A stretch of 14,385 bases of DNA from a virus (IMGVR_UViG_2713896833_000003:1-14385), one strand, 5' to 3'; positions 1 to 14,385 are shown, counted from the first letter of the stretch. Program-made: numbers and translations. The notes: generated from the letters alone by a model not told the origin.

Positions 1-64
1 GTAACTTATTGATTTAAATGGTGCCGATAATAGGAGTCGAACCTACGACCTTCGCATTACGAAT
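1..64. repeat. Left copy of 64-bp direct repeat (att site): 18 bp of flank plus the 46-nt 3' portion of tRNA-Thr
   Basis: Bases 1-64 are identical to 14322-14385 (compared by eye); bases 19-64 are the reverse complement of the tRNA 3' end through CCA. Confidence 0.9.
19..64 (-). tRNA. Partial tRNA-Thr(CGU) 3' fragment (anticodon loop to CCA end), displaced duplicate and not a full gene
   Basis: Reverse complement reads ATTCGTAATGCGAAGGTCGTAGGTTCGACTCCTATTATCGGCACCA, matching my memory of the E. coli thrW-type tRNA-Thr 3' half; sequence at 65 onward diverges from tRNA. Confidence 0.6.
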
Positions 65-1629
65 TATAAGAATCCGCTTCTAATTCAAAGCATTACCCCA
101 TCAACACTGCGCTCACACGTCCCACCACATCAAAACATGTAAAGCCTTGCAAGTCATTGCGAGGCCTTATGTGTCTCAGTTTTGTCCCACCTTGTATTAC
201 GACTTGCATAGCCAATGAAGATAAATGTGACGACAAACGGCGCAGCAGTCTTCTTTTCCTTCATACTTTCCCCACCCAGCATGCATACCTTCTACCATAA
301 CTGTAGTTAATGTCTGTTATGAGCGAAAAGCGGACATTCCTGTACAAAGCATGGCGTTGGAATACAGTAAGATCATTGATTAATAAGTGAGTCGAATCAG
401 AACAGTAGCCAATGAAACAAAAAATTCGCAAACGTAACCAAGACTGGATATCAAGGCAATTGAAACGTGCGCAAAAGAGGAAATGCCGTTAAGTTTCTTT
501 ATTAACTTTCCCTCAATATGAGCAACTGCTTGTAATGGTGTGCGCCTTAAACGGCATGGTCGTCTCAAGCCGGACTGGAGTCGCGCATTGTTTCATTAGG
601 GTTGGGGAGAAGTGCCTATTGTTGGGCAAAAAGTAGTGTTTACTGGTTTGAGGGATTTGATAAGGAGCAATTGCCTGTTGAATGGGGGCGCTGTGGGAAG
701 ATGCCTGAATATATTGGTTTTGATTTGATCTCACAGTGCAACACACAATCAACTCTTAAAGTCTGCTGTGAGCAAAAATTGCACATTTCTAACAGTCTTC
801 CGTGTGAATCAACGGGGAGCAGGTCACTGGCACAGAGGGGACGTTTAACCCCGTCCGGCCTCCGCTGAATTGGCTGCCAATTCCGTCCGGTCGTACCTGC
901 CTGAGCCGTCTACTTCAGTAAAAACTGAATCAGCATAGCAAACATATATACTGTCGCTGCAATTTGTATTGTTCGTACTCCCCATCTGAGATATCGCCAT
1001 TTATGACGTTCTCTGGCATCGGCTTCTTCAATGGTGGATTCAGTATGCTTTCTTCTCTTTGTCCTGAATGGATCAATTACCCATAGGGCAAGAATAAAGA
1101 GAACGATTGTTTTCTGAAGTATGGGATGTTCCACGAAGAGTGACTCCGGCCTGCTCGCTGATACAATCAGAATAGATGAACAATCCCGAAATAATCAACA
1201 CTAAATGTATGGCAATTATTTATTTTCGTCCTGGCTGGACTTTGTGACCTGCTCCCAACAAATTAACATAGCACAATGTAAGCAAGTTCTGCTTTTGGCA
1301 CATAGCAGTCCTAGAGACACTGGCGTAAAGCCATGGAGGATCGGTGGGAGGAGGTAAAAATCCTCTCATGCAAAAAATACGCAAAATCGATAACAGTTGG
1401 AAATCATTCAATACTCGCACTATCGGAAGTTCACCAGCCAGTCGTAGCACGTTCTTGCATACGACGTGGCTACGGTTTCAACTCCCGCCAGCTCCACCAA
1501 TCATGATTGGACGGTGTAAGGGCAACACCAACAAAAACAGGAAGTTAGCAGTCTCAGCAGGACACCGACCAGACGGTGAGGAGACAAAAAAGGATACGCA
1601 AAGGAGCCGCGGCTCTCGAGTGACACAAA

Positions 1630-1656
1630 AGCCCGCTTATGCGGGCTTTTTGTTTT
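1630..1656 (+). terminator. Rho-independent terminator-like hairpin (AGCCCGC-TTAT-GCGGGCT followed by TTTTTGTTTTT)
   Basis: Perfect 7-bp GC-rich stem with 4-nt loop and a long T-run on the plus strand, about 70 bp upstream of the restriction endonuclease gene. Confidence 0.6.
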
Positions 1657-1733
1657 TCCCTTAAGTTCCTAGCCGCTTATCTATAACTATGGAAAAATGT
1701 TAACCCTGACTGTATGTTAACAAAGGGATGTAT

Positions 1734-12630: not shown

Positions 12631-12935
12631 TGACCACTTTTACCGACAAAGAACTGATTAAAGAAATTAAAGAGCGTATCAGCAGCCTTGACGTGCGAGA
12701 CGATATTGAGCGCCGTGCTTATGAAATCGCACTCCTATCTCTGGAAGTAGAACCAGATGAACGCGAAGCTTATGAATTATTCATGGAAAAGCGTTTTGGT
12801 GACTTAGTAGATCGTCGGAGAGCAAAAAACGGCGATAACGAATACATGGCATGGGATATGACTCTCGGTTGGATCGTCTGGCAGCAACGAGCTGGTATCC
12901 ATTTCTCAACAATGTCACAGCAAGAGGTGAAATAA
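12630..12935 (+). CDS. yfdT: YfdT-like protein
   Basis: 101-aa ORF translationally coupled to neighbours on both sides. Confidence 0.6.
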   Translation: MTTFTDKELIKEIKERISSLDVRDDIERRAYEIALLSLEVEPDEREAYELFMEKRFGDLVDRRRAKNGDNEYMAWDMTLGWIVWQQRAGIHFSTMSQQEVK

Positions 12936-13285
12936 TGGAGCCATACAGCCTCACACTCGATGAGGCCTGTCATTTTCTCAAGATATCCAGACCGACTGCC
13001 ATTAACTGGATACGCACAGGGCGTCTTCAGGCAACACGCAAAGATCCCACTAAGAATAAATCTCCTTACCTCACAACACGACAAGCCTGCATTGCGGCTC
13101 TTCAATCTCCGCTGCATACTGTCCAGGTGAGCGCGGGTGATGGCATAACAGAGGAAAGAAAATGTCACTCTTCCGCAGAGGTGAAATATGGTACGCCAGT
13201 TTCACATTGCCGAACGGTAAAAGATTTAAACAGTCTCTTGGAACAAAGGACAAAAGGCAGGCGACAGAACTCCATGACAAGCTAA
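12935..13285 (+). CDS. xis: Excisionase-like (Xis/AlpA-type MerR-like wHTH) recombination directionality factor
   Basis: ATG at 12935 with GAGG SD 7 nt upstream; N-terminal [30 protein letters not shown] resembles Xis-type HTH; ORF track start at 12851 would lie inside the yfdT-like gene; 3' end overlaps int by 124 bp. Confidence 0.6.
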
Positions 13286-14325
13286 AGGCTGAAGCATGGC
13301 GGGTCAGCAAACTTGGTGAAATACCTGATATAACGTTCGAGGAAGCGTGTGTCAGGTGGCTTGAAGAGAAAGCACATAAAAAATCACTGGACGATGACAA
13401 AAGCCGGATCGGATTCTGGCTTCAACATTTCGCAGGAATGCAACTAAGAGACATTACTGAATCAAAAATTTATTCAGCAATGCAGAAAATGACGAACCGG
13501 CGTCATGAGGAAAACTGGAAACTCAGGGCAGAAGCATGCAGAAAAAAAGGGAAACCTGTTCCAGAATACACGCCAAAACCAGCGTCCGTTGCAACGAAGG
13601 CTACGCATCTTTCATTTATAAAGGCCCTACTAAGAGCCGCAGAGCGTGAATGGAAAATGCTGGATAAGGCACCAATTATTAAAGTGCCTCAACCAAAGAA
13701 TAAACGGATCCGCTGGCTGGAGCCCCATGAAGCACAAAGGCTGATTGATGAATGTCCGGAGCCATTAAAGTCTGTTGTTGAATTTGCACTGGCAACAGGC
13801 TTAAGACGCTCGAACATCATCAACCTTGAATGGCAACAAATAGATATGCAGCGCCGGGTGGCATGGATAAACCCGGAAGAGAGTAAATCAAACCGCGCAA
13901 TTGGCGTTGCGCTGAATGATACTGCATGTCGCGTATTGAAAAAACAAATCGGGAATCATCACCGTTGGGTATTTGTGTACAAGGAAAGCTGTACCAAACC
14001 AGACGGAACGAAAGCGCCAACAGTAAGGAAGATGCGGTATGACGCAAACACAGCCTGGAAAGCGGCGCTGAGACGGGCTGGTATTGATGATTTCAGATTT
14101 CACGACTTGAGACACACCTGGGCAAGTTGGCTGGTTCAAGCCGGAGTCCCGTTGTCAGTGTTACAGGAAATGGGAGGCTGGGAGTCTATCGAAATGGTTC
14201 GTCGATATGCTCACCTTGCACCTAATCACCTTACCGAACACGCACGGCAAATAGACTCGATCCTGAACCCATCGGTCCCAAATTTGTCCCAGTCAAAAAA
14301 TAAGGAAGGTACTAATGATGTGTAA
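13162..14325 (+). CDS. int: Tyrosine site-specific integrase (lambda Int family)
   Basis: 387 aa; N-terminal [10 protein letters not shown] arm-binding-type region; C-terminal catalytic motifs LRRSN (Arg), HDLRHTWAS (His-x-x-Arg), VRRYAHL (Tyr); stop codon lies inside the right direct repeat. Confidence 0.9.
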
Positions 14326-14385
14326 CTTATTGATTTAAATGGTGCCGATAATAGGAGTCGAACCTACGACCTTCGCATTACGAAT
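14322..14385. repeat. Right copy of the 64-bp direct repeat (att site)
   Basis: Identical to bases 1-64; overlaps the int stop codon. Confidence 0.9.
14340..14385 (-). tRNA. thrW: tRNA-Thr(CGU) 3' portion, truncated by the window edge; probably the intact gene continuing beyond 14385
   Basis: Reverse complement equals the tRNA-Thr 3' half ending in CCA; int lies next to it, the usual arrangement for the reconstituted tRNA junction. Confidence 0.55.

Follow-up and report, generated by a model that had tools for sequence, protein, structure and literature searches.

A 14,385-bp thrW element of Escherichia coli ST410 is probably a very recent deletion derivative of an EcoRII-bearing lambdoid prophage

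The window and its attachment sites

The stretch of DNA analysed here, called the window, is 14,385 bp long and constitutes the entire draft contig LJGI01000073.1 of E. coli ST410 strain IMT33180, assembly GCA_001282375.1. Both contig ends fall in the 64-bp att core of the tRNA gene thrW, with the following features:

1-64: attL core, 18 nt plus the thrW 3' 46 nt (reverse complement), a perfect copy of 14322-14385.
65-287: P' arm of a thrW-type attP, kept beside attL in five related loci (L002, L005, L007, L008, L014).
14322-14385: attR core, the phage-borne copy of the thrW 3' end; the remaining thrW lies beyond the contig end.

The perfect direct repeat with a tRNA-Thr 3' end described in an earlier note on this DNA was recovered as the reverse complement of the 3' 46 nt of tRNA-Thr(CGU) thrW plus 18 nt downstream. 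A perfect 64-nt repeat within 14 kb cannot have arisen by chance. As only the thrW 3' 46 nt are present, ARAGORN found no complete tRNA in the window; an Rfam scan of the window gave a partial tRNA match at 14343-14385 and, besides this, only a spurious sub-threshold mir-5880 match on the iterons described below. The full tRNA-Thr (cgt) adjoins the identical core in E. coli KKa014. In the attP of phage SfIV the P' arm (65-287) runs on from the core, and joining the window ends recreates this attP.

Comparison with insertion-free strains, which the earlier note had proposed, located the in-silico empty attB in one piece in 948 of the 5,426 genomes, several at 100% identity. The attL of the window differs from that of KKa014 at positions 7, 8 and 16. 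EC25, an ST410 clone-mate, carries the very 64-mer of the window at its attL, beside the usual chromosomal LysR-fragment flank. At the level of sequence comparison, the att boundaries of the element are validated by the EC25 64-mer and the 100%-identity empty site. A tandem array or circular form had been considered for the "phage-type" attL 18-mer (positions 7, 8 and 16) and is unnecessary, given the identical 64-mer beside the chromosomal flank in EC25. Short-read assemblies break at repeats, which is why the contig ends there, and the window alone therefore cannot show its flanks; of the "complete element" proposed earlier, the repeats at both ends stand, and completeness is deduced from a contig that stops at them.

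That the window might be a circular episome, an excised and lambda-dv-like replicating form whose terminal repeat stems from overlap in the assembly of a circle and not from attL and attR, is suggested by a whole contig with identical ends, by joined ends forming exactly an SfIV-type attP, and by the phage type of the left 18-mer. The repeat limits, however, coincide with the attL/attR homology limits in integrated relatives, which fits graph branch points and not an arbitrary circular break, and the identical 64-mer of EC25 lies at a chromosomal attL. Moreover, 64 nt is an unusual length for an assembler overlap, and the window yielded no gene for partition or plasmid maintenance. We consider an episome very unlikely.

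Immunity, replication and recombination genes

The right part of the window carries an early region of lambdoid type:

5955-6281 (ORF 5955-6314), minus strand: LexA-DNA-binding-domain-only protein, 108 aa (Pfam LexA_DNA_bind; phrog_362; 97% to SfIV gp43).
6281-6775, minus strand: PerC-family (YfdN-like) regulator, 98.8% to SfIV gp42.
6772-7713, minus strand: O-like replication initiator (phrog_391, E=9e-136; 312/313 identical to SfIV gp41).
7341-7415: candidate origin, five tandem 15-bp iterons within the initiator gene.
7723-8061, minus strand: conserved 112-aa ORF, phrog_1170.
8058-8615, minus strand: CII-like activator (YmfL / Phage_CP76).
8608-8868, minus strand: Cro-like HTH protein, divergent from cI.
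8869-8965: divergent promoter/operator region (OR), with TTGC-N7-GCAA at 8931-8945.
8966-9658, plus strand: CI-type repressor, HTH plus S24 peptidase (Ala99-Gly100, GDS144M, K181).
9714-9752: candidate OL, two TTGC-N7-GCAA sites beyond a terminator-like hairpin of cI at 9679-9696.
10361-12935, plus strand: early-left operon of yfdP, yfdQ (DUF2303), yfdR (HD 5'-deoxynucleotidase), yfdS-like and yfdT, 97.5-100% to SfIV gp30-34.
12851-13285, plus strand: excisionase Xis (phrog_2907; 143/144, 99.3%, identical to SfIV gp29).
13162-14325, plus strand: tyrosine integrase (Pfam Phage_integrase; 387/387 identical to the SfIV integrase).

The int/xis pair, the CI/Cro switch and the initiator with its candidate origin had all been recognized in the earlier note and were confirmed. 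The arrangement is that of a lambdoid immunity and replication region, with divergent cI and cro-cII followed by an O-type initiator gene containing the iteron origin, and the near-identity of Int and Xis to those of SfIV, together with the reconstituted attP and a core formed by the thrW 3' end, identifies a thrW integrator. The cI product retains the autocleavage motifs (the Ala-Gly site, GDSM and KR, with the Ser and Lys residues). Three TTGC-N7-GCAA sites flank cI vs 0.57 expected, a motif count from which they are tentatively assigned as operators.

Defence cargo and the left third

The region next to attL contains the following features:

313-1301: MITE-like passenger unit of about 990 bp, bounded by imperfect 21-nt inverted repeats and lacking an ORF large enough for a transposase.
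1473-1655, plus strand: fossil of an ssrA (tmRNA) 3' end (1473-1500) and a downstream terminator-like hairpin (about 1625-1655).
1728/1734-2942, plus strand: R.EcoRII restriction endonuclease, intact (Pfam EcoRII-N and EcoRII-C).
2977-4410/4452, minus strand: M.EcoRII-type C5 cytosine methyltransferase, 477 aa, intact (Pfam DNA_methylase and DNA_meth_N).
4817-5356, plus strand: PD-T4-3/CMoRE type IV nuclease with a GIY-YIG domain, cut short at about residue 177 of 257, with deletion junction J1 inside the gene.

The passenger unit, in which a 74-aa ORF (910-1134, minus strand) matches phrog_25496, was also found alone in an unrelated island of strain KL53. In the ssrA-integrated relatives L003 and L004, similarity to the window begins exactly at the ssrA fossil (1473).

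The R and M genes of the window match EcoRII end to end. The endonuclease gave a PADLOC REase_II match at E=2e-234 and aligned with residues 1-403 of PDB 1NA6 (E=3e-243), and the methyltransferase matched MTase_II in PADLOC at E=4e-230; the former, with effector and catalytic domains, and the adjacent methyltransferase are both full length by sequence. The R.EcoRII gene is 100% identical at the nucleotide level to that of KKa014.

The second defence gene belongs by its nuclease domain (Pfam LEM-3_GIY-YIG, residues 28-110) to the PD-T4-3 family, which it matched in PADLOC at E=2e-99. Its ORF has 179 aa vs 257 at full length, relatives carrying a 774-nt gene. A complete C-terminal modification-sensing domain belongs to PD-T4-3/CMoRE type IV restriction (PMC12923530), whereas in the window the alignment with PDB 9U75, the CMoRE of E. 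coli O157:H7, covers residues 6-184 of 262 and that with the profile positions 1-178 of 256. The window copy differs from the O157:H7 protein at only three of the 177 retained residues but, unlike it, is without about 80 C-terminal residues of the 5hmC/5ghmC-sensing domain, and for this reason the stump is probably non-functional. The earlier report of an R-M system and a GIY-YIG gene thus holds for an intact EcoRII pair and for a nuclease gene that is present in truncated form. The largest deletion destroyed one of the two defence genes. PADLOC gave no defence-family match for yfdP-T, orf92 or the LexA-DNA-binding-domain protein, and a marginal CARF match (E=3e-4) was disregarded.

The EcoRII system and the GIY-YIG gene fill the identical attL-proximal slot in the intact prophage of KKa014. 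The cargo was therefore already beside attL in a prophage with all its virion genes and does not replace them, so that the earlier wording, with defence genes "instead of" virion genes, was misleading. The search for same-site relatives with other cargo, also proposed earlier, showed that the contents of this slot differ among thrW relatives (gtrABC, EcoRII plus CMoRE, Avs2, or an FRG-domain gene), which marks it as a cargo position of the thrW phage family.

Collinearity with the KKa014 prophage

The window is collinear with the intact 44,858-bp lambdoid thrW prophage of E. coli KKa014 (NZ_CP147105.1, 2,531,164-2,576,021), whose locus serves here as the coordinate frame L005, and differs from it by six bases in total outside the deletions. 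Window 1-5347 corresponds to L005 2665-8011, with three mismatches, all in the attL 18-mer, and window 5736-14385 to L005 38873-47522, with three more, all in the J3 microhomology; there are no substitutions elsewhere. The interval between these long matches holds two further collinear pieces, of 216 and 206 bp, in the order and orientation of the parent:

5346-5347: deletion junction J1; 25,585 bp lost, 2-bp TA microhomology.
5346-5561, minus strand: internal fragment (216 bp) of a late-region DNA-methyltransferase gene, matching L005 33597-33809 (phrog_6952 on the fusion ORF).
5549-5561: deletion junction J2; 3,506 bp lost including Q, microhomology of about 8 bp (CAGTGCCT).
5549-5754, minus strand: internal fragment (206 bp) of a DUF968/HNH gene, L005 37316-37521 at 100% (Pfam DUF968, phrog_96).
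5736-5754: deletion junction J3; loss of 1,351 bp with KilA-N, the 7-bp microhomology GGTTATC forming part of a 19-bp imperfect match.
5736-5958, minus strand: RusA N-terminal stump, 74 of 129 codons, the 5' part of fusion ORF 5272-5958 (phrog_34 on residues 1-74 only).

Within the fusion ORF, pieces of RusA, DUF968 and the methyltransferase are joined in frame, in that order. The full RusA gene of KKa014 occupies L005 38706-39095 (129 aa in relatives), and only residues 1-74 of it remain in the window, fused to foreign fragments. What had been read as a nin-like RusA gene is thus a 74-codon stump, and the neighbouring ORF encodes the LexA-DNA-binding-domain protein.

Besides truncating RusA, DUF968, the methyltransferase and CMoRE, the deletions removed tail, head, terminase, cos, lysis, Q and KilA-N genes. 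All late genes between the junction points are present in KKa014, the prophage of which shares with the window the att site, the EcoRII-CMoRE cargo beside attL, and the immunity, replication and recombination modules. It differs in having 30.4 kb that are missing from the window, comprising the full CMoRE gene, the genes from tail fibre to terminase, the cos region, the lysis genes, the methyltransferase gene, Q, the full DUF968 gene, KilA-N and the full RusA gene. As already noted earlier, no window ORF matched terminase, capsid, tail or lysis genes in Pfam or PHROGs. Since the corresponding 30.4 kb of KKa014 are deleted, the window, without Q, lysis cassette, cos/terminase, head or tail, is a defective derivative and not a viable member of its family.

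Collinearity with an intact prophage, scars that truncate genes, and three junctions resolved to the base lead us to regard the window, with a probability of about 0.9, as a defective lambdoid prophage of the SfIV/SfII/SfV-related family at thrW, derived very recently from a normal prophage of about 45 kb by internal deletions. The exact derivative and its junctions are known from one assembly record only, a draft. An exact search with J1 gave no match in viral, genome-representative or metagenome contigs, the junction region was not found in one piece among complete E. coli genomes, and these searches brought no intermediate or sibling of the deletion product to light.

The single short-read draft assembly, and the several lambdoid prophages with shared segments that E. 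coli carries (a median of 6 matching places per genome), also raise the question of whether the internal junctions are assembly chimeras in a strain that really holds a full-length prophage. A de Bruijn misjoin would, however, need a k-mer overlap far longer than the 2, about 8 and 7 bp of microhomology at the junctions. The fragments also keep the order and orientation that they have in the parent, and one continuous ORF crosses J2 and J3; misassembly is accordingly most improbable.

The earlier note had left a choice between a cryptic prophage remnant and a helper-dependent island. A satellite of the PICI, cf-PICI or P4 type, packaged by a helper while keeping integration, regulation and replication, superficially fits the 14.3-kb size, int/xis, the repressor, an own initiator and origin, the defence cargo and the absence of virion genes. 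Against it, every gene of the window recurs identically within a full-size prophage, and three ORF-truncating scars account for what is missing. No match to terS, ppi/rpp, sid/psu/delta, capsid, AlpA or pri-rep/alpha primase was obtained in Pfam or PHROGs, and nothing in the window matches the stretch of the parent from DUF1441 (small-terminase position) to terminase, in which the cos of a lambdoid phage would be expected. The repressor is an SOS-type S24 autocleaving CI and not a helper sensor of the Stl or AlpA type, the initiator is a phage O-like phrog_391 protein instead of a satellite-type primase-replicase, and the derivative is known from a single assembly. Neither packaging hijack or a helper cos/pac, nor a pri-rep/alpha protein with a helper-sensing regulator, was thus found. 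We hold a satellite to be extremely unlikely; the cryptic remnant stands, as the KKa014 prophage minus three deletions, and the helper-dependent island finds no support, every packaging or interference function being absent.

Relationship to known elements

SfIV, SfII and SfV are serotype-converting phages of Shigella flexneri. Phages SfI, SfII, SfIV and SfV insert in thrW via a 46-bp att, and SfIV has been induced and isolated (PMC3851460). The window shares with SfIV the attP, the 46-bp thrW core, the attP-adjacent cargo position, and proteins at 100% (integrase), 99.3% (Xis), 99.7% (O-like initiator) and 97.5-100% identity (yfdP-T homologues). The two are heteroimmune, cI and cro being unrelated except for a short stretch of 33-38%, and the cargo of SfIV is gtrABC instead of EcoRII/CMoRE. 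SfIV is moreover a complete, inducible virus, unlike the window with its lack of virion genes.

KplE1, a 10.2-kb remnant, still excises in vivo (PMC2951348). Like the window, KplE1/CPS-53 of E. coli K-12, located at argW, is a small att-bounded remnant with yfdN-yfdT homologues, int and an RDF. It differs in its tRNA site and integrase, is without a CI repressor and is not SOS-inducible, whereas the window keeps cI, cro and cII and an apparently intact initiator and origin.

Replicons of the lambda-dv type are lambdoid fragments that replicate as plasmids by virtue of a cro-cII-O-ori segment. The window retains the corresponding segment, plus cI, int/xis and att. It has no separate gene for a P-like loader, and likewise there is none in the intact relatives.

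Independent thrW remnants of 16, 20, 24 and 26.8 kb occur in other strains. At thrW, EC25 carries another allele of the family, which is 97-98% identical, differs in its immunity genes and bears Avs2 as cargo. In-situ decay of an EC25-type element, considered as an origin of the window, is ruled out by these differences, and the different allele at thrW implies that the history of the clone included replacement as well as deletion.

Proposed mechanism and significance

The defective prophage would have arisen by three microhomology-mediated internal deletions, or one complex event, that cut out the whole late half, with Q, the lysis cassette, cos/terminase, and the head and tail genes. In the lysogenic state, CI bound to TTGC-N7-GCAA operators would keep the early promoters off and give superinfection immunity against homoimmune phages, and the EcoRII system would restrict incoming DNA without CCWGG methylation. 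Upon SOS induction, RecA-stimulated autocleavage of CI could derepress pL (yfdP-T, xis and int) and pR (cro, cII and the O-like gene), Int and Xis could recombine attL with attR to release a 14,321-bp circle, and replication could then start at the iteron origin through the O-like initiator. Nothing further would follow, because no late activator, lysis gene, packaging site or virion gene is left. Excision and an SOS response are plausible on account of the SfIV-like Int, Xis and O-like proteins, the reconstitutable attP and the autocleavage motifs of cI.

By extension, the deletion product might be a satellite in the making, a 14.3-kb SOS-inducible, excising and self-amplifying element moved together with EcoRII by an SfIV-like or other lambdoid helper through recombination or packaging. 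If true, the emergence of a hitch-hiking defence element out of a full prophage would have been observed directly; we give this reading hardly any credence.

The window is an ordinary defective prophage, of very recent origin and from a known family, and matters mainly as a base-resolved snapshot of rapid prophage decay. The deletions took every lethal or virion function, and immunity, recombination, replication and the R-M system stayed. According to a published account, proviruses lose core genes through rapid deletion and retain genes useful to the host (PMC13626063), and the decay pattern of the window fits the picture given there. For annotation, the case is a warning that a draft contig with an att core at both ends will look like a complete small element even if it is not.

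Origin from an intact thrW prophage

Judged by its sequence, the window is a defective prophage that decayed recently; it belongs to a well-known family integrating at thrW and carries known cargo. The intact form, a lambdoid prophage of 44,858 bp, occurs in E. coli KKa014, flanked by paoD/LysR-fragment and thrW-proA. Its order is attL, an ORF-poor kilobase, EcoRII R and M, a GIY-YIG gene, tail fibre through terminase, lysis and a methyltransferase; then a cargo slot, Q, DUF968, KilA-N, RusA, LexA-DBD, PerC and O-like genes; and finally cII, cro, cI, yfdP-T, xis, int and thrW. 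Window positions 1-5347 correspond to the left end of this prophage (three mismatches, all in the attL 18-mer) and 5736-14385 to its right end (three mismatches, all within the microhomology of junction J3), with two collinear pieces, 216 and 206 bp long, in between.

Deletion junctions of the window relative to the KKa014 prophage
J1, 5346-5347: TA microhomology; 25,585 bp lost
J2, 5549-5561: microhomology of about 8 bp; 3,506 bp lost
J3, 5736-5754: 7 bp within an imperfect 19-mer; 1,351 bp lost

The window is thus the KKa014 prophage minus 30.4 kb. Since all substitutions are confined to the attL 18-mer and the J3 microhomology, it probably arose very recently. The earlier suggestion of a cryptic prophage remnant is borne out by this deletion and by the scars, which truncate genes. 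No shared junctions were found among complete E. coli genomes or viral, genome-representative and metagenome contigs, and the fusion ORF 5272-5958 and the truncated GIY-YIG ORF 4817-5356 were matched in contig LJGI01000073.1 only. Mis-assembly of the junctions is disfavoured, since overlaps of 2-8 bp are too short for de Bruijn misjoins and the segments are collinear with the KKa014 prophage.

Source contig and attachment sites

The window is the entire 14,385-bp contig LJGI01000073.1 of draft assembly GCA_001282375.1, from E. coli ST410 strain IMT33180, isolated from human blood in Germany in 2009 (table in PMC6559143). As a complete draft contig it ends where a short-read assembly is expected to break, at a repeat, so the chromosomal flanks cannot be read from it. 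The direct repeats said to delimit the element are indeed perfect, 64 nt long, at 1-64 and 14322-14385. Each consists, in reverse complement, of the 3'-terminal 46 nt of the tRNA-Thr(CGU) gene thrW plus 18 nt downstream. A partial tRNA lies at 14343-14385 (Rfam); ARAGORN detected no complete tRNA in the window, and the full thrW gene adjoins the same core in relatives. Joining the left flank of KKa014 to one copy of the core and then to the right flank gave an in-silico empty site; 948 of 5,426 complete genomes contain it unbroken, several of them with 100% identity across 664 bp.

The window attL differs from that of KKa014 at positions 7, 8 and 16 (2671, 2672 and 2680 of the KKa014 locus, L005), where it has the phage-borne copy. 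This phage-type attL first suggested a tandem or circular form, an idea countered by E. coli EC25 (ST410), in which the usual chromosomal flank is followed by a 64-mer 100% identical to that of the window; the source clone therefore ordinarily has a perfect 64-bp attL/attR pair at this locus. The repeat limits are exactly the attL and attR homology limits in every integrated relative, and a circular episome is disfavoured by this coincidence with natural att homology and with the EC25 chromosomal attL. The 18 nt 3' of thrW occur in E. coli as two variants: KKa014, NCTC9041 and empty sites have GTAACTCTTTGATTTTAA; EC25 (ST410), the window and the phage-borne copy have GTAACTTATTGATTTAAA. Whether the perfect att repeat spans 48 or 64 bp therefore depends on the host.

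Window position 14385 joined to 65 gives the attP of Shigella phage SfIV. The thrW gene is the integration site of SfI, SfII, SfIV and SfV, via a 46-bp att; their serotype-conversion genes adjoin the int-attP region, and induction and isolation of SfIV were reported (PMC3851460). The early arm of the window shows 96-98% DNA identity to SfIV, SfII and SfV. Residues shared with SfIV number 387/387 in the integrase, 143/144 in Xis and 312/313 in the O-like initiator, and the yfdP-T homologues are 97.5-100% identical as proteins, whereas cI and cro are unrelated, making the two elements heteroimmune.

Gene content and predicted behaviour

Family searches matched the lambdoid early genes and the R-M system proposed by the earlier note, the latter as EcoRII.

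Features of the window (genes from family searches)
13162-14325: int
12851-13285: xis
8966-9658: cI, HTH plus S24
8608-8868: cro-like, divergent from cI
8058-8615: CII-like
6772-7713: O-like initiator
7341-7415: iterons, five of 15 bp
EcoRII R and M

In agreement with the earlier note, no window ORF matched terminase, capsid, tail or lysis families. The supposed RusA gene, ORF 5955-6314, encodes a LexA-DNA-binding-domain protein; RusA itself is reduced to residues 1-74 of ORF 5272-5958; the middle and end of this ORF derive from fragments of a DUF968/HNH gene and a DNA-methyltransferase gene. The other reading offered, a helper-dependent island or phage satellite, fails every specific test: packaging/interference genes, a satellite-type replicase and a helper-sensing regulator are all absent from the window, the parent's cos/terminase interval is gone, and the deletion scars truncate genes.

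As a defective prophage, the element retains a cI with Ala99-Gly100, the motif GDS144M and Lys181. TTGC-N7-GCAA sites occur both between cI and cro and directly beyond the terminator-like hairpin of cI (three found, 0.57 expected). The repressed element would confer homoimmune superinfection immunity and EcoRII restriction. Under SOS, CI cleavage would derepress pL, which serves yfdP-T, xis and int, and pR, which serves cro, cII and the O-like gene. Int and Xis together would then excise the element as a 14,321-bp circle, and the initiator could start replication from the iterons. The cycle would go no further, as Q, the lysis genes, cos/terminase and every virion gene have been lost. In the KplE1 remnant of K-12, excision is still possible at such small size (PMC2951348).

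The 108-aa protein at 5955-6281 (-) has a LexA-type DNA-binding domain alone, without a peptidase domain, and is kept in the nin-like region throughout the family, including SfIV gp43; it could interfere with LexA operators. Between cI/OL and yfdP, similarity to several relatives breaks at 9817-10175, which marks this stretch as variable; no gene is annotated in it. ORF92 (9714-9992), without a family, overlaps candidate OL sites, and an inverted repeat with 25-nt arms, 84% complementary, lies at 10224-10248/10288-10312. A sub-threshold Rfam hit to mir-5880 at 7338-7412 (-) (30.7 bits, gathering score 97) was rejected as an artefact of the iteron tandem repeats.

Defence cargo

For R.EcoRII, the match to the solved structure 1NA6 spans residues 1-403, and the EcoRII methyltransferase is full length. 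The GIY-YIG gene is PD-T4-3, renamed CMoRE; J1 falls inside this gene, so that its alignment to PDB 9U75 extends only to chain residue 184 of 262, and with about 80 residues of the sensing domain lost, the window CMoRE is probably dead. The cargo had been thought to take the place of virion genes, but the intact KKa014 prophage has EcoRII-CMoRE in the same attL-proximal slot. The module (at least 80% query coverage) occurs in 260 of 5,426 genomes. In ssrA-integrated relatives it directly follows ssrA. This explains why a thrW prophage contains, at 1473-1500, a fossil of the ssrA (tmRNA) 3' end, along with the hairpin downstream of it (about 1625-1655), and indicates transfer of the module among phages that integrate at different sites. 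In the attL-proximal slot, SfIV has gtrABC, EC25 has Avs2 and N2456 has an FRG-domain gene.

In the KKa014 annotation, an 81-nt fragment labelled as a "capsid protein" pseudogene corresponds to window 1376-1456. A second variable cargo slot, removed from the window by the J2 deletion, extends in relatives from the late-region methyltransferase (or holin) to Q (L007 9220-12081; L008 13696-15147; EC25 locus L013 11083-12078) and is occupied by DUF262, HEPN-like nuclease and cytosine methyltransferase genes together, by an ATP-dependent nuclease, or by an SDH-family Clp-fold protease.

Window 313-1301 forms a unit of about 990 bp with imperfect 21-nt terminal inverted repeats (CTGTTATGAGCGAAAAGCGGA/CTGCTATGTGCCAAAAGCAGA). 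Its largest ORF is at most 88 aa, and a 74-aa hydrophobic ORF, 910-1134 (-), matches phrog_25496. The unit occurs alone, unannotated and at 99% identity, in an unrelated integrase island adjoining mutS in KL53 (L006 3501-4491), and in many further genomes; an element from a dog strain (L002) is without 288-1299. It is possibly a non-autonomous mobile element.

Recurrent decay at thrW

In other strains, thrW holds independent remnants of this family that differ in the genes kept: Z1323PEC0011 (16 kb), N2456 (20 kb), NCTC9041 (24 kb) and EC25 (26.8 kb). EC25 lies about 99 SNPs from the source strain (listed in PMC6559143), yet its remnant represents another allele (97-98% identity) that carries Avs2 and different immunity genes, which implies turnover of the locus by replacement plus deletion and an occupant that varies within one clone. 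In this remnant (L013 1-23844, L014 12019-18001), the integrase protein is identical, cI/cro are different, and Avs2 lies in the attL-proximal slot.
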